This document shows positions 22,829-34,395 of a stretch of DNA of 64,000 nt, one piece after another. Each line of letters starts with the position of its first letter. The stretch's first letter is position 1. Below the pieces are notes generated by a model. The model ran no database searches, had not been told where the DNA came from, and saw only the letters and a program-made list of their open reading frames with translations. The stretch comes from Escherichia phage nomo. The position numbers were made by a program, and so were the translations under genes. The stretch lies in sequence record MN850578.1; one strand, given 5' to 3'.

Positions 22829-24034
22829 ATGATTTTCATCTACGAACATTTCAAAACTCGTAAAGAAGCACGCGACCGCCGTGCAGAACTTGAGAAGAAG
22901 GGTTTCACATGTGCTATTGAGAAAGGTACTACAACATGGACACTGGCAGTAGGTGCCCCAGAGCTGTTTGATCCTGACCGAGACAGTGTCTGCTATACCC
23001 GTGAGGATTTTGAAACCCGCGAAGAGGCCCGTTTATTCCGCTACGGACTGGAAGACAACGGTAAGTACGCCATGATCTTAGATTCAGGTGAAGGTTCCGT
23101 TAAACGTTGGGGCGTGGTATACCCACTGTGTGTTGTTCACGGTGTGGGGGTCACTGGGGTAGCAATCAAGTCAGAAGAACCTTTAGTAGAAGTCAAAGAT
23201 CCGGTGCTGGAAGTGGTGAGCAGTGTGTCTCAGCAACAGTCTCGAAGCATCGAGCCTTTGGTAGTTATTTGCGGGGAACTCCTCCAGATCACCTGCAACG
23301 AAGGCATTTTTGAAATTCGCCGCAGCGAAAGTGAGGAAGTTTACCAGAAAGTCTTCGACCATATTTCTGTTCAGGAATATGATGAGGCAATTGGTGAAAT
23401 CCTTGTCTGGCTGGAACGCAAGAATGAGTTCACCACACTTGCAGACAACCTGATCATGAAAGATGGTAAGCTCTACTACTACGGTGTAGAGATGCGATCC
23501 ACCATTGCAAAGAAAATTGAGGAAGATTATGTAGATGGAACACTGGACGACCGATATGTTAAATTCCTTGTCCGTCTGCTACGCAACCCGTCTGCAAAAT
23601 CTGTGAACATGCTCTACGATTTCATGCAGGCTAATGACATCCAGGTTGCAGAAGATGGTCGAATCATTTGCTATAAGGGGGTTCAGTTTAACGGGAGCAG
23701 GTGGGTGGATTGGCACAGTGGTAAAGTTCCACAATACCAGGGTGCTTTTGTGTCCATGCCTCGTAACTTTGTAGAAGATGATCCGGAAGCTGCGTGTTCT
23801 TATGGCCTGCACTGCGCCAGCAAAGAGTATGCAGCGGGCTATGGCACTGTAATGATGGTTATGGTTGACCCTGCGGATGTGGTTAGTGTGCCATACCAAC
23901 ACAACAGTGCTAAGTGCCGTGCATGCCGCTACGAAATCGTAGCAGCACCGGAATCACGCAAAGATGGCGATCCGATTGAATACGTAGTTGACCGTGATGG
24001 TAACATCATCGACATTATCTACGAGGAGGCGTAA
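22829..24034 (+). CDS. rIIB: rIIB-like protein
   Basis: C-terminal blocks LYDFMQANDIQVAEDG, CSYGLHCASKEY, DPADVVSVPYQHNSAKCRACRYEIV parallel recalled T4 rIIB; immediately downstream of rIIA. Confidence 0.75.
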   Translation: MIFIYEHFKTRKEARDRRAELEKKGFTCAIEKGTTTWTLAVGAPELFDPDRDSVCYTREDFETREEARLFRYGLEDNGKYAMILDSGEGSVKRWGVVYPLCVVHGVGVTGVAIKSEEPLVEVKDPVLEVVSSVSQQQSRSIEPLVVICGELLQITCNEGIFEIRRSESEEVYQKVFDHISVQEYDEAIGEILVWLERKNEFTTLADNLIMKDGKLYYYGVEMRSTIAKKIEEDYVDGTLDDRYVKFLVRLLRNPSAKSVNMLYDFMQANDIQVAEDGRIICYKGVQFNGSRWVDWHSGKVPQYQGAFVSMPRNFVEDDPEAACSYGLHCASKEYAAGYGTVMMVMVDPADVVSVPYQHNSAKCRACRYEIVAAPESRKDGDPIEYVVDRDGNIIDIIYEEA

Positions 24035-25742: not shown

Positions 25743-25803
25743 TAAGATGTGAGTATAAAGGGGAGGCACTCCTCCCCACAAAAACTAAGGAGAGCACCAA
25801 ACG

Positions 25804-27129
25804 ATGAGTAAAACCAAATTAGAACTAACCTGGATAGGTAAAAACGAGCGCAAAAAGTTAGAGCCGCACATTTTGTTAGAAGATTCTAGCAAGTCTTACC
25901 ACAGCCAGAAAGTGACCGAAAACGATATTTTTGATAATAAACTGATTTTTGGAGATAACTTATTAGCATTGAAGGCGCTAGAGCAAGAGTATGCAGGCAA
26001 AGTGAAGTGTGTTTACATAGACCCACCATTCAATACTGGAAGGGCTTTTGAGCACTACGATGATAGCCTTGAGCATTCCATTTGGCTGGGCTTAATGAGG
26101 GATAGGTTAGAAATAATTCGTAATCTTCTAAGTGATGATGGGGTAATATTCGTTCACTTAGATGATTGCGAAATGGCGTATTTAAAAGTTTTGATGGACG
26201 AGATTTTTGGTCGTGCAAATCAGTTAAATACCATATCGATGACCACAAATTCCCCTTCGGGATTTAAGGCAACAGGAGCCACAGTTTTCTCCACAGCAAA
26301 CTTTTTGCTTGTATATGCAAAAGATCGCACCCAGAAACCGCTTAACAAAATCTATATACCTAAAGGGTATGATACAGGATATAACAAATACCTATTAAAC
26401 CCGGATGACCATTATAAAAATTGGACGTGGTGCGGTATTGCCGATGCGTTTGCAAAGGCCAATGGCTATAAAGATGCAAAAGAGGCCAAGAAAAAACTGC
26501 CTGATACATTCGATGATGAATTAGCACAATTCGCAATTGATAATGCAGAACGTGTATTTCAATCTGTTGCAATCGGCGGTGGTGCTAAAATAAAGAGAAA
26601 AGAAACTATCGAGAAGTCAAAGAAAGATAGGGATAAGGTTTATGTACATCCAAATGAAGATGTTGAAGGATTTTATATCGTAAATGGTAGGCAAATGGTC
26701 TTTTACTCCAACAGGCTTTTGGAAATTGACGGTGATATGCAACCTGCGGAACTAATAACTGATGTTTGGACAGACATTAGTTGGAATGGAATAGCAAATG
26801 AAGGCGGCGTTAGTTTCAAAAATGGGAAAAAACCAGAAGCGCTTTTGAAGCGAATTTTCGAAATGTGTACGCGAGAAGGCGATTTGGTATTGGATTCATT
26901 CGGTGGTTCGGGAACTACTGCTGCTGTAGCTCACAAGATGAAAAGACGTTGGATCTCAATCGAGCTAGGTGATCATTGTCATACCCATATTATTCCGCGC
27001 TTGGAAAAAGTGATCGATGGTGAAGATCAAGGTGGTATTTCTAAGTCTGTAAACTGGCAAGGTGGTGGTGGCTTCCGTTATTACAAACTTGCCCCGACCT
27101 TAATTGCGAAAGATAAGTCTGATCAATAA
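25804..27129 (+). CDS. DNA methyltransferase (beta-class N6-adenine or N4-cytosine)
   Basis: Motif IV VYIDPPFNTG precedes motif I LDSFGGSGTT, the beta-class order. Confidence 0.7.
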   Translation: MSKTKLELTWIGKNERKKLEPHILLEDSSKSYHSQKVTENDIFDNKLIFGDNLLALKALEQEYAGKVKCVYIDPPFNTGRAFEHYDDSLEHSIWLGLMRDRLEIIRNLLSDDGVIFVHLDDCEMAYLKVLMDEIFGRANQLNTISMTTNSPSGFKATGATVFSTANFLLVYAKDRTQKPLNKIYIPKGYDTGYNKYLLNPDDHYKNWTWCGIADAFAKANGYKDAKEAKKKLPDTFDDELAQFAIDNAERVFQSVAIGGGAKIKRKETIEKSKKDRDKVYVHPNEDVEGFYIVNGRQMVFYSNRLLEIDGDMQPAELITDVWTDISWNGIANEGGVSFKNGKKPEALLKRIFEMCTREGDLVLDSFGGSGTTAAVAHKMKRRWISIELGDHCHTHIIPRLEKVIDGEDQGGISKSVNWQGGGGFRYYKLAPTLIAKDKSDQ

Positions 27130-27142
27130 AGAGTACAATCAA

Positions 27143-27448
27143 ATGATGAAATGTTATAAACCATACACTTTTGAAATCGATTTCGAACTTGACGATATGT
27201 TCACTGTGGAAGCTCAGGCAGTTGTCCAGTTGCCAGACCCAGAGTGCCGTGATTCTGATGTTGACTATTACGGATTTAGACAAATTACCGATGTGTATGT
27301 TTACCACAACGGTGAAGAGGTGGACTTCCACCAACTGCCAAACGATTTGCGACACTCAATTTACAAACGTGCAGCCCGTGAACTAGAGTCCTATCTGGAT
27401 GCAGCGACGACAGCAGCTGCATTTGCTGAAGAAGTGGGAGGTTTCTGA
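27143..27448 (+). CDS. hypothetical protein
   Basis: Start moved to ATG 27143 just past the methyltransferase stop. Confidence 0.45.
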   Translation: MMKCYKPYTFEIDFELDDMFTVEAQAVVQLPDPECRDSDVDYYGFRQITDVYVYHNGEEVDFHQLPNDLRHSIYKRAARELESYLDAATTAAAFAEEVGGF

Positions 27449-27846
27449 TGATTACAGGTGTGAAGGTTATCCAATACCACTTAACCAAATTGGAAGATGC
27501 TGAAAAAGAGCTTGCAGAAGTTCTGAATAGTGGATATACTTTGCTATCATGCGCCTGCTCAGACACCTACGTTGTGTGGACACTTATCCGGAAGGAAGAG
27601 CCTGCAGGGATCTTGGTGCCAAACCCTAAGATTATTAGTGAGGTGGATGACTATCCCCAGGACGGCCTGCCAGAAGGCTGGGAAGTATGGGAAGGTGGTG
27701 AAAACCCTGCACCAGGTAAGTGGGTAAAATATAAACTACGTAGTGGTGCACAGTACGCTGACTACTCCGATGACCTAGACTGGAGTCATTCTTCACCAGG
27801 ATCGTCTGCAAGTTCATATGATATCGTTGCTTTTCAGGAAGAATAA
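27448..27846 (+). CDS. hypothetical protein
   Basis: RBS gggagg. Confidence 0.5.
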   Translation: MITGVKVIQYHLTKLEDAEKELAEVLNSGYTLLSCACSDTYVVWTLIRKEEPAGILVPNPKIISEVDDYPQDGLPEGWEVWEGGENPAPGKWVKYKLRSGAQYADYSDDLDWSHSSPGSSASSYDIVAFQEE

Positions 27847-27858
27847 GGGGATAGTGTT

Positions 27859-28341
27859 ATGTCAGATTTTATGTGGAAAGTTGGTTACGCAGCTCCTGAA
27901 ATGTGTGAGGCTTGCTTTGTGAAAATAGGCCGCGAGGATATCGACAAAGTGATCCTTAAGTTTCGTGATGTGGCTGTGATCGGTAACCGAGTGCTTAAGC
28001 ACTTAAAGAATCTGAAGCTCACCAAAAAGAAGTTCTTCGGACTTTTCGAAGAGAAAGTTGATGCTTGGACCCATTGCATCCAGGAAGCTAAATCTCACTA
28101 CAGTGCTATCGTTACCCCAGAACGGGTAGCCAAGATGGAAGGACTCATCAACAGCACAGAGTTTGAGTGCCTAAAGGCTGCCCTTGATAGTTATCCGAAA
28201 TGCCTCAAGCACTTGGACAAGTATGTAGAAAAGGATGGGGAAATGTATCTCACCCTGGATGCATACTATGAGATGCAAGAAATTTTAAATTTAGATTTGA
28301 CATTGGTATCCACCGAGTATACAATAGGTATCCGGGTTTAA
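27859..28341 (+). CDS. hypothetical protein
   Basis: RBS aagggg. Confidence 0.5.
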   Translation: MSDFMWKVGYAAPEMCEACFVKIGREDIDKVILKFRDVAVIGNRVLKHLKNLKLTKKKFFGLFEEKVDAWTHCIQEAKSHYSAIVTPERVAKMEGLINSTEFECLKAALDSYPKCLKHLDKYVEKDGEMYLTLDAYYEMQEILNLDLTLVSTEYTIGIRV

Positions 28342-28348
28342 CACTAGG

Positions 28349-28375
28349 CCCTGCCCGAAAGGGTAGGGCTTTTTG
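28349..28375 (+). terminator. rho-independent terminator
   Basis: gccctgccc-gaaa-gggtagggc then ttttt; near-identical copy at 38482. Confidence 0.65.
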
Positions 28376-28392
28376 CATTAGGAGACAGCAAA

Positions 28393-29157
28393 TTGAAATT
28401 TATCTATAAAGAACACTACCACAAAGGTGTTGTGTGGAGTCTATTTGACGGATCTGGCGGTGCAGTCATTGACTGGGCAAAAGCTGGATATCTGTGCCTG
28501 TGCTTTAACGCAGAAGGTGCTGACCACGGCAGTTATGCAGAGGTGATCACCGATCATCCAAATATTCACTATGTAGATTATTGGATTGATCCATGGTTCC
28601 CTCAGGAAACTTTCTGCATGTACCCAGCTCCGGACTTTGTTCTTGCATTTCCTCCGTGCACCCACTTAGCGGTGTCAGGTGCTGCACACTTTAAGAAGAA
28701 GCTGGCTAAGGACCCGCTGATCCAAATTAATGCTGTAAAGGATGCTCGGGTTGCAGAAGAGTTGGGAGAGATTTACGATTGCCCGTGGCATGTAGAGAAT
28801 CCTGTGGGTGTTATGTCCACACTGTGGCGCAAACCTGATTACCGTTTTCACCCTTCTGACTATGGCGGGTATTTACCGGAGGATGATGTAAACCCCTGGT
28901 TTCCTGAATTTATAGCTCCACGTGATGCCTATCCAAAAATAACTTGCGGCTGGATAGGTAATGGATTTATAATCCCGGCCACAAAACCTGTCCAGCAAAT
29001 AGTTGACGCGGTTAGCGGGTATTCCATGCAACACGCCAAGCTGGGTGGAAAGAGTGCAAGAACGAAGATGATCCGAAGCCTCACACCACGTGGCTGGGCA
29101 AAAGCCGTATTCTTAGCAAACGAGCCTGTAGTAAGGAGCAGAATTAATGGGAAGTAA
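28393..29157 (+). CDS. compact C5-cytosine methyltransferase-like protein
   Basis: Motif I-like LFDGSGG, motif IV-like AFPPCTHLAVSGA with Cys, motif VI-like HVENPVG; TTG start 7 nt after aggaga; only 254 aa, no obvious target-recognition domain. Confidence 0.45.
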   Translation: MKFIYKEHYHKGVVWSLFDGSGGAVIDWAKAGYLCLCFNAEGADHGSYAEVITDHPNIHYVDYWIDPWFPQETFCMYPAPDFVLAFPPCTHLAVSGAAHFKKKLAKDPLIQINAVKDARVAEELGEIYDCPWHVENPVGVMSTLWRKPDYRFHPSDYGGYLPEDDVNPWFPEFIAPRDAYPKITCGWIGNGFIIPATKPVQQIVDAVSGYSMQHAKLGGKSARTKMIRSLTPRGWAKAVFLANEPVVRSRINGK

Positions 29158-31225
29158 ATTTATGGCATCTGCATACAACCGTTTCGGTGAGCCAAACCCG
29201 AAAGCAACTAAGTATAAAAGTGGGGGAAGTGTGAAACGAGACTATCGTGATGAAAAAGAAGTTGAAACTGTAGAGACTGTTTTAGAAAATACTAAAATTG
29301 TCCCTGTCCCACAACAAAATATCGGTCTGATGGCTGCACAATATTTTGGTGTGCGATCAGCATTGTCCCAAGAAGACGGTGTGACAGTCACTGCAACATA
29401 TTTCCCATATTACGACCGCTACGGAAATCTGTCCGGTTTCAAAAAGCGCGACTGGACGATTCCTAAAGAGCAAAGGGGCCATTTCTCCGTTGTTGGCATC
29501 GTAAAGGCTAACTCCCAGATGTTTGGTCAAAAGCTGTGTGCATCTTCCAACAACCGTAAGCAGATTAACGTTTGCGAGGGAGAAGGTGATGTTATTGCAG
29601 CATGGCAGGCTGCATATCAGATACAAGTAAAAGGGATTCTCACCAACGCTAAAGCCCCGGCAAAGGTGAAGCAGTGGGCTAAAGAGGTACAGGACGGGAT
29701 CGATGCAGTTATCAACGGTGGTGATCTGGCAGGAAAACCCTGCCTACCTTTTGTTGGAATTAACTGCGGATGTGCAAACGCAGTAGATACTTTTGCAAAC
29801 AATGAGAAGTTTATCCGTAGCTATGGAACAGTTGTGCTGGCAATGGATAACGATGCAGCTAACGAGGTAGAGAAGCAAAAACACGTCATTAAAGGTGTTG
29901 AGGCTACGCACAATATCGCAGCATTTTTGATGGCTGATAACGTTTACCACGTAGAGTACCCTGGTGAAGTAAACGATCCTGACGGTGTAAAAGATATCCG
30001 TGACATGCTGAAGGCTAAAAAGCTGGAAGATATTGTAAACATGTTCCGGCATCCTGTTAAGTATGTACCGGATGCTGTATCGGATTTAGAAGACTTCTCT
30101 ATCGAATCTTTGCGGAAAAAGACTTCCAACGGGGTAGATATCAGCGCAGAGTTCCCAAAACTGCAAAAAATGCTAAAAGGCTTGCACAAAGGGACACTCG
30201 TAATGCTTACAGGTCCATCAGGAGGCGGTAAAACAACTGTAGCTAAAAAACTGGAACACTGTATTGCAAGATACCTAATGGACCCGACATGTCCAAAGGC
30301 TGATGATTACGAAGAGGATGATCGTCTATGCATGATTCATCTTGAGGAGGACCCAGAGGAAGCAATTAACTCCTTGTATGCAAACCAGTTAGGGTTTGAT
30401 GTTAAAGAGTTTGTTGAAGATCCTAGCCAGTTTTTAACTGATCAAGAACACGCAGAGATTCACCAATCATGGGCAAAAGCTGGAAAAATCAAAGTGTTCA
30501 AACATTTCGGGTCTATTCCAGTGGACGAGTTGATTACCAAGCTTAAGCAAATGGTTTGCCTGTACCATTGTCGTTATATTGTGCTGGATCACCTGTCCAT
30601 GGTAATTTCAGGGCTTAATGTTAAGGATGAGCGAAAAGAACTGGACATGGCTATGACCCAACTGGCTGCGTTTTGTAAGCAGTTTAACGTGTTTATCTTG
30701 GTGATCGCTCACCTCAAACGTACAGAGATTGTGCCCCCTAAGGACAAGGATGGTAACCCATTACCTTTCTGGTATCCTGTGCGAAAAGAGAATTTGCGAG
30801 GATCGGCTGGGCTTGAACAGTTGAGTTGGGTAGTCATAGGTGTCGAGGCCGAAGAAATGGTGGATCGTTCTCGTGGACGTGTCCGTCTGGTAGGTCTTAA
30901 AAACCGTCCAGCAAAAACTTTAGGTATTGCTGACACTTTAGTTATGGATCCGCATACAGGTAAGTTCCATGATGCCAGTAATTGGTACTGGGACAAAGAA
31001 ATGCAGATGTTTACAGACGGAGAAGGTGGGGAGGTTGTTTGGAGACCTCAGGCTATGTTTGAGGATCAGGAGCATGCAGTTGTAGAAACACCTATGGGCA
31101 AGGTTGTGGCTGATAAGGTTGTAACACCCACTGTCAAGCCTATTGACACGCAGGAAGACCTCCAATACGATGATCCATCCTCTGATCCGGTCCCTGGTTT
31201 TGAGGATGATGAAACACCTTTTTAA
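29147..31225 (+). CDS. bifunctional DNA primase-helicase
   Basis: N-terminal Toprim-like residues (CEGEGD, LAMDNDAANE), C-terminal Walker A LTGPSGGGKTT and Walker B-like VLDHLS. Confidence 0.7.
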   Translation: MGSKFMASAYNRFGEPNPKATKYKSGGSVKRDYRDEKEVETVETVLENTKIVPVPQQNIGLMAAQYFGVRSALSQEDGVTVTATYFPYYDRYGNLSGFKKRDWTIPKEQRGHFSVVGIVKANSQMFGQKLCASSNNRKQINVCEGEGDVIAAWQAAYQIQVKGILTNAKAPAKVKQWAKEVQDGIDAVINGGDLAGKPCLPFVGINCGCANAVDTFANNEKFIRSYGTVVLAMDNDAANEVEKQKHVIKGVEATHNIAAFLMADNVYHVEYPGEVNDPDGVKDIRDMLKAKKLEDIVNMFRHPVKYVPDAVSDLEDFSIESLRKKTSNGVDISAEFPKLQKMLKGLHKGTLVMLTGPSGGGKTTVAKKLEHCIARYLMDPTCPKADDYEEDDRLCMIHLEEDPEEAINSLYANQLGFDVKEFVEDPSQFLTDQEHAEIHQSWAKAGKIKVFKHFGSIPVDELITKLKQMVCLYHCRYIVLDHLSMVISGLNVKDERKELDMAMTQLAAFCKQFNVFILVIAHLKRTEIVPPKDKDGNPLPFWYPVRKENLRGSAGLEQLSWVVIGVEAEEMVDRSRGRVRLVGLKNRPAKTLGIADTLVMDPHTGKFHDASNWYWDKEMQMFTDGEGGEVVWRPQAMFEDQEHAVVETPMGKVVADKVVTPTVKPIDTQEDLQYDDPSSDPVPGFEDDETPF

Positions 31226-31283: not shown

Positions 31284-34061
31284 ATGAGCATGTGGTCGTT
31301 CGACTTTGAGTCATCCGGTTTGCTGGAAGATCCAGATCTTTATTATCACTGCGGCCTGTTTAAAGAGCTGAATAAGAACCGTTTTATGCTGTTCCTTCCT
31401 CTAAATGACCGCACACACTACTCCGAAGAGGATATAGAGAAGGCTAAGAACTTTATTCTGGCAAAGAAAACTCTTCATAAAGATTTTGAAGTTCGCATAG
31501 CAGATTTTTCGGAGTTGGAAGGTTGGCTTACAGGCAATTCCGACTGGTCACCAACAGCTTTGAACTGCCATAACTGCTACAGTTATGACTTTATGCTGAT
31601 GGAAAGATTATCCGGTATTCATTTTGATATGTTCCGTGATCCTAAATGCATGGGGACTATCAACGACCACCAGGTTAACCTGTTTGATACGTTGGCGATG
31701 AGCAGAATCTTGTGGCCTGATCGCCCTTTACCAAAAGGTTGTCCGGACTCTGTATTCAACCCGGTTACTAAGAAAATGCAGCCTGTTGGTCCTCACGGCC
31801 TTATGGCATGGGGCTACGCCCTTGGTAACCAGAAAGTTCAAATTGATGACTGGCGCGATCTTCCGTTGTGGAAGTATGTGGATCGTGTATTCGAGGACGT
31901 TATCATCCAGGAGCTGCTCTGGAAAGAGCTGGTAGCGGAATCAAAAGGTGTATTCTACGGCAAATCTGACATGCAGAACTTTATGTACGATCCAGCCAAA
32001 GAGAAGCCGAAAGGGTTCAAGAAAATCACCTGGAAGAACGCATTACGCCGAGGCATGCTGCAGCACTTCCTGATGGAGCTGCAGGCCCGTCAGGGTGTGT
32101 ATTTCGACATAGATGGGGCTATTGCTTTACGTGACCGTTGCGATGCGTGGATGAAAGAGATCGCTGATCGTGTTGAACCTCAACTTCCTTTAAAAGAGTT
32201 GTCAATGTCTCAGCGGCCCAAGTTCCCTGAAAAGCCGTTTAACCAAGATGGGACAATCTCCAATAATGGTTGGAAATGGTTAAAAGATAAGCTTGGCTAT
32301 CCTGTAGACATGAGCGCTTTAGAATTCAAAGCCCCGCCTAAGCGAGCATTTACCTCCACAGGAGATGTCAGCAAGATGGGGATAAAATGGTGCGAAGAGA
32401 TGGGCTGCAAAGACCCCGACAAGATGGCTGATTTCTTGAGAGGTTATATTAAGGGCACCTCCACACCACAACCTTTACCTAAAGAGCTGATGGATCAGGC
32501 AATAAGTGATCTGCAGCAGAAGCGAATGCCTGACTGCAAGATACCTATGAAAATCAGCAATCAGGACGACATTAAGCGATACCTGATCAGTGCTGGTTGG
32601 CTTCCGACAATGTGGAGAACTAAGGATGTAACTAAGGACAGCAAGAAGAAAGCTCTACCTGATGCAGATGTTGATGCACGAGTATATGCATACATGGACG
32701 AGCTTTTAGAGTCAGAGTATTGTGACCTAATTATCAACTTCTGGAACAAAACTGATGCTAAGTTTCAGACAACAGTGCACAAGTTCCGAAGCTTTCCTAA
32801 CTCCGAAAGGATTAAAAAGGAAGTGTTCGGGAAAATACGCAGAAAAGCCAGGGCACTTATTACTTCTCCGCAACTGAAAGATACGTTTGGACACCTATGT
32901 CCGAATCTTGAAAAATTGAACGGAGAGATGGCTAAAGATATCGTCTTGTGGTTATCATTGCGAAACCGCAGATCGGTCCTTGATCCAATCAAGGAGGATA
33001 AGGTTGATACTGGTCTTCTTAATCACCCACGTTTGAAGATTGACCATAAGCTTCCTGCTAAAAGCTCTGGATTAACAAACACTTCCCGACAGAAACACAG
33101 TATTTGTGCAAACATGCCTAAACCATCTCCTAAAGTGGTTATGGGTAAAGAGATGCGTAGCTTGTGGGGTGTTCCTCCTGGATACTTTGAGATCGGTATT
33201 GACGGGTCCAACTTAGAGCAGCTTATCGGGGCTTGGGGTGCCTTTGAGTTCGACAACGGCTTGTACTATGATGTTGTAAGTAACGGGGACGCACACCAAA
33301 ACAATGCTGAGGCATATACAAAAGTAGCAGGCAGAGAGGTGTCTCGTAACGACGGTAAACCTATCACGTATGGGGTTATGTACGGGGCACAAAAAGATAA
33401 AGTTGCAGATATGCTGGATATCTCCCCAGAGTTAGGGCAAAGAGTGATCGATGCACTTTGGGATGCCAACCCCGGTCTTAAGGGGCGCAAAGAGGATCTG
33501 GAGAAATTCTGGGAAGCAACAGGTAAGAAGTTTATCTACTCTTTTGATGGTCATGCTATCTGGACCCGATCTAAACACTCTTTACTTAATGCATACCAAC
33601 AAAATGGTGGTGCATCGCTGTGTGACTTAGTTGGGATACTCATGCACCACCAAATGGTGAAGCGTGGGTGGTACGATGAAGGTGTCCGTCGTATTATCTA
33701 TTACCATGACGAATATCAGCTTCAAGTGCCTGACACACCGAAGTATAAGACTGTGTACACCTTCGACACAATTGAAGAACTGGAAGCATTTAAGGCAGAG
33801 CAGGAAGCCAAACTTCATGTGTTCGACGGTCATAAGTACAAAAAGGCACGCAAGGATGAGGACGGAAACGAAGTGGTTGACAGAGACGGAAACACGGTGT
33901 ACGATCCTATCCTGAACGATGACGGAAAGCTTGAACTTATCTGGAGCCCTGTGGGTGAAATGGTGGTGCATTGCTTCTGGCAAGCTTCTAAAATGATGGG
34001 AGTCCCGTTCCAGATCACAGGTGAATACTTGTGTGGTCGTAACTGGGGTGATTGTCACTAA
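31284..34061 (+). CDS. family A DNA polymerase with 3'-5' exonuclease domain
   Basis: Exo I FDFESSGL; motif A IGIDGSNLEQ; motif B R..GKPITYGVMYGA; motif C YYHDEYQL. Confidence 0.75.
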   Translation: MSMWSFDFESSGLLEDPDLYYHCGLFKELNKNRFMLFLPLNDRTHYSEEDIEKAKNFILAKKTLHKDFEVRIADFSELEGWLTGNSDWSPTALNCHNCYSYDFMLMERLSGIHFDMFRDPKCMGTINDHQVNLFDTLAMSRILWPDRPLPKGCPDSVFNPVTKKMQPVGPHGLMAWGYALGNQKVQIDDWRDLPLWKYVDRVFEDVIIQELLWKELVAESKGVFYGKSDMQNFMYDPAKEKPKGFKKITWKNALRRGMLQHFLMELQARQGVYFDIDGAIALRDRCDAWMKEIADRVEPQLPLKELSMSQRPKFPEKPFNQDGTISNNGWKWLKDKLGYPVDMSALEFKAPPKRAFTSTGDVSKMGIKWCEEMGCKDPDKMADFLRGYIKGTSTPQPLPKELMDQAISDLQQKRMPDCKIPMKISNQDDIKRYLISAGWLPTMWRTKDVTKDSKKKALPDADVDARVYAYMDELLESEYCDLIINFWNKTDAKFQTTVHKFRSFPNSERIKKEVFGKIRRKARALITSPQLKDTFGHLCPNLEKLNGEMAKDIVLWLSLRNRRSVLDPIKEDKVDTGLLNHPRLKIDHKLPAKSSGLTNTSRQKHSICANMPKPSPKVVMGKEMRSLWGVPPGYFEIGIDGSNLEQLIGAWGAFEFDNGLYYDVVSNGDAHQNNAEAYTKVAGREVSRNDGKPITYGVMYGAQKDKVADMLDISPELGQRVIDALWDANPGLKGRKEDLEKFWEATGKKFIYSFDGHAIWTRSKHSLLNAYQQNGGASLCDLVGILMHHQMVKRGWYDEGVRRIIYYHDEYQLQVPDTPKYKTVYTFDTIEELEAFKAEQEAKLHVFDGHKYKKARKDEDGNEVVDRDGNTVYDPILNDDGKLELIWSPVGEMVVHCFWQASKMMGVPFQITGEYLCGRNWGDCH

Positions 34062-34110
34062 TGTAAACTATCAGCACAGGGAGGTGCTGTTGAGCAAAGA
34101 GGAGACTTTT

Positions 34111-34395
34111 ATGGTAGTAGAGCCAACAAAAACATTTACATCCATGACCATTCCTGTTATTATGCAGGTGGAGTGTGTTCAGGTATCTCAAGTGTGGCCT
34201 GGCACCAAAATCCCAACAGGGCCTGATTTCTTTCAGGTTGGGAAAGTGTACAATGTCTGGAAGGCACCAGATTGTTACCCTTTCATTAAAGATGACCGTG
34301 GGATGCTGTGGTATCTTGGAAATGACTTGACACTGCACCTTGGGAATGCTATTATTGCAGTATTCAGACTTAACAAGAAGGAGACCGATCAATGA
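34111..34395 (+). CDS. hypothetical protein (small paralog family)
   Basis: Start moved to ATG after gaggag; shares W/Y-rich pattern with 34392 and 34616 genes. Confidence 0.45.
   Translation: MVVEPTKTFTSMTIPVIMQVECVQVSQVWPGTKIPTGPDFFQVGKVYNVWKAPDCYPFIKDDRGMLWYLGNDLTLHLGNAIIAVFRLNKKETDQ

Follow-up and report, generated by a model that had tools for sequence, protein, structure and literature searches.

Two putative orphan DNA methyltransferases of Escherichia phage nomo: an apparent truncated copy of an E. coli type III mod gene and a compact C5-type protein

Region 25804-29157 of Escherichia phage nomo (sequence record MN850578.1, from which a stretch of 64,000 nucleotides, hereafter the window, was analysed) holds two open reading frames (ORFs) that resemble DNA methyltransferase genes of quite different kinds, ORF A and ORF B, and raises the question of where each gene came from and what the phage would gain by carrying both. 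We consider it likely that they encode two unrelated, independently acquired orphan DNA methyltransferases that both modify the phage's own DNA during replication. A first-pass annotation, made from the sequence alone, had located both ORFs correctly, and the gap between them, put at some 1.3 kb, measures 1,263 bp and contains three small ORFs.

The region is shared at 97-99.5% identity with more than 100 public genomes of rV5-like coliphages (genus Vequintavirus), rV5_ev168 being the closest match (99.5%). Both genes are annotated across more than 100 near-identical public phage genomes; in phage RudolfGeigy of the BASEL collection, for example, ORF A is labelled 'putative N6 adenine methyltransferase' and ORF B 'Dcm-like C5 cytosine methyltransferase'. 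On the basis of this public annotation and of the strong purifying selection on both ORFs (see below), neither is a chance reading frame. Both the gene pair and the compact C5 family were on record in public annotation before, and experimental work exists on one member of the family. What we add is modest: the donor of ORF A at the nucleotide level, the loss from ORF A of the region that aligns with a Res-docking domain, and the recognition that 'Dcm-like' misnames ORF B.

ORF A and its donor gene

ORF A carries DPPF at residues 73-76 and FGGSGTT at residues 366-372, so that motif IV, the target-recognition domain and motif I follow one another in the order of the beta class, and it matches Pfam PF01555 with an E-value of 5.9e-42, which bears out the earlier assignment to the beta-class amino-methyltransferases. 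More narrowly, ORF A resembles the Mod subunit of type III restriction systems: it matches the PADLOC model MTase_III (PDLC03636; E 4.8e-205) over positions 2-444 of 575, where an E. coli Mod covers positions 2-572, and the nearest solved structures are type III Mods, namely H. pylori Mod (6k0w), EcoP15I Mod (4zcf) and Mbo45V. With the Mods of EcoP15I and EcoP1I it has the domain order in common (N-terminal domain, D-P-P-aromatic motif, inserted recognition domain, FxGxG), but it is distant from them in sequence, has a shorter recognition domain and lacks the C-terminal domain.

The gene has a far closer relative in E. coli. A 567-aa Mod of this species (P0273) shares 96% protein identity with ORF A across residues 1-438, and the corresponding codons are 94% identical in DNA, a near-identity that takes in the entire central recognition region. 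Homology to this mod gene begins 13 nt 5' of the ORF A start codon and stops 9 nt 3' of its stop codon. In E. coli, mod is directly followed by the gene for a 912-aa type III Res (PADLOC REase_III, E 8.8e-191) within a defence island that also holds AlpA, SNF2 helicase, Abi_2 and AIPR genes, whereas ORF A sits in a phage replication region without res: the window contains no Res-like gene, the nearby helicases being PIF1/Dda-like and DnaB-like. Among 5,426 complete E. coli genomes, 29 carry the mod-res pair on the chromosome; they come from avian-pathogenic E. coli (APEC), bovine and human isolates (for example LS45 and APEC E16002), and K-12 and CFT073 are not among these carriers. The G+C fraction is 0.395 in ORF A and 0.402 in E. 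coli mod, compared to a window mean of 0.438. Among phages, ORF A is restricted to the genus Vequintavirus, where more than 80 records contain it in intact form with protein identities of 95-100%.

Alignment of the 3' ends revealed how the phage gene came to be shorter. Relative to E. coli mod, an 11-nt deletion between 27119 and 27120, just after codon 439, shifts the frame, and the product ends in ...KDKSDQ before a stop codon at 27127-29, while leftover mod sequence (encoding ..INKEYN..) persists in a different frame up to 27138. As a result, ORF A lacks the last ~128 residues of E. coli Mod. Because of this deletion scar, the residual homology beyond it and the rule, across many bacteria, that members of the family are full-length Mods (560-600 aa, 60-77% identity) with a Res partner, we take the phage copy to be the derived form; to judge by these alignments, ORF A is a captured and truncated copy of an E. 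coli type III mod gene. No earlier description of this capture was found in a limited literature search.

The EcoP15I complex indicates what the deletion removed. EcoP15I Mod consists of an N-terminal domain (residues 14-60), a methyltransferase domain (62-262 and 390-516), a recognition domain (263-384) and a C-terminal domain (539-644); its dimer interface involves the N-terminal and methyltransferase domains, one protomer reads the site with its recognition domain while the other catalyses, and the dimer (Mod2) alone is an active methylase (PMC4490356). Extensive contacts to Res are made by the C-terminal domain of ModA, and the ModA methyltransferase domain touches Res too (PMC4490356). 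As the alignment of ORF A to 4zcf (E 1.5e-24) ends at EcoP15I residue 522 of 644, only the Res-docking domain is gone and the parts required for site-specific methylation are kept.

The truncated gene has remained under constraint. The ratio of nonsynonymous to synonymous divergence (dN/dS) is 0.079 against E. coli mod and 0.058 between the window and phage FV3, whose copy ends in a different C-terminal tail (...KDKFDSEEDLE-stop). Another phage-like contig, which also carries NrdD/NrdG, PhoH, ClpP and Dam genes, provides the third truncated copy (P0275; 444 aa and 83% identical). Two other candidates for phage relatives without the C-terminal domain (P0317 and P0298) were dropped, one lying in an unusual bacterial context and the other being a split mod beside res.

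Synonymous divergence is 0.34 between the window and FV3 copies (L093 2986-4329), and 0.20 and 0.21 from these to E. coli mod (L085 8001-9704), a pattern that could reflect a slow host and a fast phage clock after a single capture or repeated exchange with host alleles. The E. coli gene is itself variable. In H185-H189 (e.g. NZ_CP182142.1), which make up 5 of the 29 carriers, the match to the mod allele is confined to 61% of the gene and falls into two pieces (88% identity). In CUPF09, the one genome of these five listed in a search with mod plus res, the combined query nevertheless matches at 96.7% over 85%, res appearing far better conserved. The H185-H189 mod looks like an alternative recognition-domain allele, presumably outside the cover of the phage methylase. 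Moreover, a metagenome contig (L092 4810-9323) carries a 71%-identical mod split into ORFs of 452 and 139 aa immediately upstream of a 912-aa res and adjoining the Kiwa genes kwaA and kwaB; this split mod could be frameshifted, phase-variable or the product of a sequencing error.

ORF B and the compact C5 family

The motifs of ORF B are those of C5-cytosine methyltransferases: motif I is FDGSGG (F18-G23; (F/Y)Dx(T/S)G in the wider family), motif IV is PPC (residues 87-89, with C89 as the catalytic Cys), motif VI is ENP-V (135-138), which lines up with ENV in E. coli Dcm, and P232-R-G-W-A-K-A-V239 forms motif X, while the position of motif VIII was assigned after a preprint on phage K42 (10.1101/2023.08.16.553469). 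The first-pass annotation had recognised motifs I and IV (Pro-Cys) for what they are, but its ENV in motif VI is in fact ENP. ORF B matches phrog_757 ('DNA methyltransferase') over residues 2-251 (E 1.8e-86) and has homologues in 1,502 phage records, chiefly of Escherichia, Klebsiella and Salmonella phages; sequences clustered at 90% identity yielded 3,526 matches, and at 50% identity the family falls into 1,010 clusters. With a family median of 240 aa, the length of ORF B, at first thought unusual for its compactness, is the norm. Homologues at 38-62% identity occur in related myoviruses, including Salmonella phage SSBI34 (Vequintavirinae). Since ORF A is limited to the genus and ORF B homologues extend beyond it, ORF A was apparently acquired at the level of the genus, and ORF B appears to have been resident for longer.

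Searches by sequence and profile against solved structures returned only marginal matches of the N-terminal part to DNMT3B and M.HaeIII (E 0.24-0.55), the rest being spurious, and sequence similarity to the PF00145 enzymes (M.HhaI, M.HaeIII, Dcm) and to DNMT3A/B is not significant. Even among 73 family representatives chosen at 50% identity, which also underlie the conservation counts below, PF00145 is touched by a single one (E 0.007). With matches this marginal, a fold comparison was needed to place ORF B. The fold is that of a class I S-adenosylmethionine (SAM) methyltransferase with C5-methyltransferase topology, as had been anticipated; Foldseek agrees, and the best structural match is DNMT3A/B.

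Catalytic positions are strongly conserved in the family: Cys89 in 70/73 representatives, Glu135 in 71/73, Asn136 in 70/73, Lys182 in 70/73 and Arg228 in 71/73. Between the window and FV3, ORF B has a synonymous divergence (dS) of 0.48 and a dN/dS of 0.018. This conservation and constraint indicate a functional enzyme and no degenerate paralog, contradicting the earlier suggestion of a catalytically altered paralog. Two very large proteins of uncultured phages in BFVD, A0A6J5SE15 (1397 aa) and A0A6J5NPY6 (1126 aa), contain ORF B-like domains (23-25% identity, Foldseek E 1e-8 to 1e-11); one of the two is labelled helicase, which echoes the frequent helicase adjacency of the stand-alone gene.

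How could so small a protein recognise DNA? K182 at the motif VIII position and R233 in motif X are 51 residues apart in ORF B (family median 47, range 39-64), a distance that is ~139 residues in M.HhaI and ~99 in DNMT3A. The view that ORF B has no target-recognition domain is therefore nearly right, but a mini recognition region exists at 190-231, consisting of a 26-residue variable loop (190-215) and a basic segment, GGKSxRTKxIRS (216-231), that is conserved on a par with the catalytic motifs. The C-terminal motif of the family, PRG(F/W)AxAV, resembles what we take to be its DNMT3A counterpart, GRSWSVPV. As in split C5-methyltransferases a recognition domain might be supplied by a partner gene, we called ORFs at 80 viral loci plus the window and compared them by all-against-all BLAST; no such partner emerged, the commonest neighbour family occurring at no more than 24 of the 80 viral loci and none being shared with the window.

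The 'Dcm-like' label would imply CCWGG as the target. In an hhalign comparison with E. coli Dcm (E 0.12), motifs I, IV and VI are colinear and the Dcm recognition domain is unmatched. Counts of CCWGG (146 observed versus 162 expected under a Markov model) and of other sites in the window reveal neither avoidance nor enrichment and carry no information on specificity. We rejected CCWGG specificity as a corollary of the label because similarity to Dcm is not significant and the site was assumed in the preprint. By sequence comparison, ORF B is no orthologue of host Dcm, and 'Dcm-like' is a misnomer.

The experimentally studied member of the family is the 'Dcm' of phage K42, which is 95% identical to the BASEL phage KarlJaspers (Bas06) and from which escape mutants on retron Ec86 were isolated (10.1101/2023.08.16.553469). 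According to this preprint, K42 Dcm triggers the retron and is toxic together with it, but a C82A/E128A/K175A/K176A mutant is not; expression of K42 Dcm raised 5-methylcytosine (5mC) in the multicopy single-stranded DNA (msDNA), as determined by liquid chromatography-mass spectrometry against a 5mC standard; the gene is encoded by 34 of 35 Ec86-sensitive phages; and K42 mutants without dcm are viable (10.1101/2023.08.16.553469). CCWGG was carried over from host Dcm and was not mapped, and msDNA is poorly methylated in MG1655 without the phage enzyme (10.1101/2023.08.16.553469). As MG1655 has its own dcm gene, this suggests that the phage enzyme does not just share the specificity or substrate preference of Dcm.

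ORF B is 53% identical over 235 residues to the KarlJaspers homologue (a 711-bp gene), and C82, E128 and K175 of K42 map onto C89, E135 and K182. Like ORF B, the K42/KarlJaspers proteins (236-254 aa across the compared set) are encoded by a stand-alone gene in the replication or early region, share the Cys, Glu and Lys and have DNMT3A/B as best structural match; they differ in that ORF B has an N-terminal extension of 8-10 residues and belongs to a myovirus (Vequintavirus), whereas K42 and KarlJaspers are siphoviruses of the Drexlerviridae. By analogy with this homologue, SAM-dependent C5 methylation of cytosine in DNA is the most likely function of ORF B. Of the three options proposed in the first-pass annotation, a minimal C5 methyltransferase is the one best supported, 5mC production having been reported for K42 Dcm, whose KarlJaspers homologue is 53% identical to ORF B.

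Probable self-methylation and its rivals

From the gene structure, homology, fold, truncation, purifying selection and genomic context of ORF A and ORF B described above, we infer enzymatic activity in phage nomo, the modified bases, the target sequences and a protective effect as follows. By analogy with EcoP15I, ORF A would act as a Mod dimer that methylates the asymmetric site of the donor system, DPPF pointing to N6 of adenine as the probable target, rendering replicating phage DNA invisible to the donor type III enzyme; without its C-terminal domain, it would not recruit the host Res. In ORF B, Cys89 would attack C6 of a flipped-out cytosine and Glu135 would protonate N3, the methyl group would move from SAM to C5, and beta-elimination would free the enzyme. 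Expressed with the primase-helicase, ORF B would place 5mC on replicating phage DNA at a predicted short motif, which would shield it from a subset of 5mC-sensitive endonucleases, at the price of attack by retron Ec86 and presumably also by type IV enzymes that depend on 5mC. Both proteins would resemble other phage orphan methyltransferases (Dam of T1, T2 and T4, Dmt of P1) that pre-empt restriction and have no cognate endonuclease. Such enzymes, of bacterial restriction-modification origin, are reviewed in Murphy et al. 2013, as cited in PMC12210895. Compared to phage orphan methyltransferases generally, ORF A stands out because its donor can be named at 94% DNA identity and because the endonuclease-docking domain has been lost.

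Several points weigh against two active self-methylases. First, ORF B lacks the QxRxR of motif VIII, having YxK182(K/R)T at the equivalent place, so that a Lys stands where classical C5-methyltransferases have RxR, and it falls below threshold in Pfam PF00145, NCBIfam and PADLOC scans. Second, the residue at the end of strand 2 is N39 in ORF B but Asp in 66/73 family representatives. Third, within the variable loop (205-215) ORF B reads 'SGYSMQHA' and KarlJaspers 'DKDNPGWA', and on account of this difference neither the activity level nor the specificity of K42 Dcm can be transferred to ORF B with certainty. Fourth, methylase activity of a Mod without C-terminal domain is only predicted for the family of ORF A, and DPPF favours N6-adenine without strictly excluding N4-cytosine. 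Fifth, a literature search found no methylome or restriction-digest data for phage nomo or any Vequintavirus. Finally, the Vequintavirinae proved 'exceptionally susceptible' to restriction-modification in the BASEL phenotyping against six systems, two each of types I, II and III (PMC8594841), which contradicts the broad evasion of restriction that the presence of two methyltransferase genes had at first suggested.

On the basis that the Vequintavirinae are sensitive to all six systems, any protection must be narrow. Narrow, system-specific protection is also what the descent of ORF A from one particular mod gene points to. The source strains of the BASEL restriction panel were, we assume, K-12 and CFT073, and as neither is among the 29 mod-res carriers, a benefit of this kind is consistent with the BASEL data. 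Pre-emptive self-methylation against the donor type III system is, in sum, the most likely role of ORF A.

A more elaborate proposal is that loss of the C-terminal domain from ORF A was adaptive, adding to pre-methylation a poisoning of Mod2Res through heterodimers with host Mod or through competition, and that ORF B is a minimal C5 enzyme that uses its ~26-residue loop to read a short or relaxed motif other than CCWGG; we regard this combination as speculative and rather improbable. Alternatively, ORF A may serve, chiefly or in addition, as a dominant-negative anti-restriction protein that lowers Mod2Res, by forming heterodimers with host Mod or competing for sites, before methylation is complete. 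EcoP15I dimerisation through the N-terminal and methyltransferase domains and Res contacts through the ModA C-terminal domain would permit this, the retained parts of ORF A are 96% identical to host Mod, and a truncation near one position persists in three diverged copies with different C-terminal tails. On the other hand, the argument is drawn from a distantly related structure, in which the ModA methyltransferase domain also meets Res, so that binding may not be fully lost, and self-methylation alone explains why the catalytic motifs of ORF A are perfect and under purifying selection. We consider a dominant-negative role unlikely.

Methylation might instead serve phage physiology, for example the timing of replication or packaging, discrimination between phage and host DNA, or escape from mismatch repair. 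ORF B lies within the replication module and is coupled to the primase-helicase, relatives of it are fused to helicases, and in the BASEL Drexlerviridae restriction resistance does not track methyltransferase content in any simple way (PMC8594841). The viability of K42 without dcm fits a physiological function as well, but it speaks against an essential one, and the near-identity of ORF A to a restriction Mod, which extends to the recognition domain, is difficult to account for other than by mimicry of a self mark. While a purely physiological role is possible for ORF B, it leaves this near-identity unexplained, and as an account of the locus we find it decidedly unlikely.

It is less probable still that ORF B transfers a group other than methyl, such as carboxymethyl from carboxy-S-adenosylmethionine (Cx-SAM) in the manner of CmoX, or that it acts on single-stranded DNA, replication intermediates or RNA. 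CmoX enzymes are distinguished by SPPC and by an Arg replacing the Asn of motif X, usually with a phage cmoA or ligase gene nearby (PMC12783734). Motif IV of ORF B is FPPC, no cmoA or CmoY-type ligase gene is annotated within 6 kb on either side in the near-identical RudolfGeigy genome, and the K42 homologue yielded a 5mC signal; R233 may fill the position of the CmoX Arg, but the equivalent Arg of DNMT3A coexists with ordinary SAM use. The least probable explanation, that either gene or both have become inactive (ORF A as a captured fragment in decay, ORF B as an altered, non-enzymatic paralog), could appeal to the frameshifting deletion in ORF A, to the failure of ORF B in all curated C5-methyltransferase profiles and to the restriction sensitivity of the Vequintavirinae in the laboratory, but is opposed by dN/dS values of 0.058 (ORF A, from two truncated phage copies) and 0.018 (ORF B), by catalytic motifs that are all intact and conserved, by more than 80 phage records with an intact ORF A and by the dependence of the K42 homologue on its catalytic residues.

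Layout of the locus and significance

The coordinates of the two genes and of the features around them are collected in Table 1. A terminator-like hairpin splits the ORF A unit from a second unit formed by ORF B and the primase/helicase gene. The 11-nt overlap of the latter two genes implies co-transcription and makes translational coupling probable.

Table 1. Features of the methyltransferase locus of phage nomo, in window coordinates.
Feature	Position	Strand	Basis or remark
mod-homologous DNA block	25791..27138	+	blastn and end-of-homology alignment; 94.1% over 1,363 aligned columns
ORF A, 441 aa, putative orphan, C-terminally truncated type III Mod-like beta-class amino-methyltransferase	25804..27129	+	
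Truncation scar of mod	27119..27138	+	MAFFT alignment of 3' ends, three-frame translation
Small hypothetical gene, 100 aa per public annotation, phrog_4240	27146..27448	+	Vequintavirus only; no methyltransferase partner
Small hypothetical gene, 132 aa, phrog_11995	27448..27846	+	
Small hypothetical gene, 160 aa, phrog_12900	27859..28341	+	
Terminator-like GC-rich hairpin followed by a T run	28346..28371	+	Terminator annotated at the equivalent place in phage Murica
AGGAG Shine-Dalgarno sequence and TTG start of ORF B	28380..28395	+	Sequence; identical start in RudolfGeigy and FV3 annotation
ORF B, 254 aa, putative compact DNMT3-like C5-cytosine DNA methyltransferase, phrog_757/K42 'Dcm' family	28393..29157	+	
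Primase/helicase gene	29147..31225	+	ATG lies 11 nt within the ORF B 3' end

The first of the small genes (ORF 27104/27146-27448) has a weak match to a PHROG labelled 'DNA methyltransferase' (E 3.6e-5), which was discounted, the ORF being a hypothetical gene found in Vequintavirus only; its upstream TTG extension does no more than overlap the leftover mod sequence. The N-terminus of the 132-aa ORF (27448-27590) has a module of ~40 residues in common with the N-terminus of the rIIB-like protein (22829-22960) at 31% identity (pairwise E 0.006). This module, which also matches weakly SPOR and PHROGs labelled 'DNA ligase', may be a small recurring domain.

A near-consensus sigma-70 promoter sequence (TTGACA-17-TACAAT, 11/12) at 28297-28325 lies directly upstream of the hairpin and the ORF B start. 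A transcript from it would enter the hairpin, which suggests a leader or attenuator, or else a match by chance. Downstream, the DNA polymerase coding sequence of RudolfGeigy is annotated as a two-piece join equivalent to window positions 31284-34337 and the uninterrupted window ORF stops at 34061, suggesting a frameshift, an intron or other recoding near 34061.

The region also matches, at 97-99%, more than 12 GenBank records of 'Campylobacter phages' with C. jejuni as host (MG065635-MG065682), including D#, D1, C5, C7, C9, A112b, A13b and A140-A142. True Campylobacter phages (CP8, CP20, the F3xx series) reach only 37-42% to ORF A, and the MG065635-MG065682 records look as if their host labels were wrong or the preparations contaminated.

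For the biology of these phages, ORF A, the more instructive of the two genes, provides a datable case, at the nucleotide level, in which a lytic phage has taken over the 'self' mark of one host system and shed the domain that recruits the nuclease. If this is true, rV5-like phages, which serve in work on phage therapy and on the biocontrol of O157, would be immune to this type III system, found in ~0.5% of E. coli strains of APEC, bovine and human origin, and would stay sensitive to other restriction systems. The recognition sequence of ORF B and the way it reads DNA matter for predicting which phages trigger retron Ec86 and for predicting 5mC-dependent restriction, and ORF B may find use as a very small cytosine methylase.

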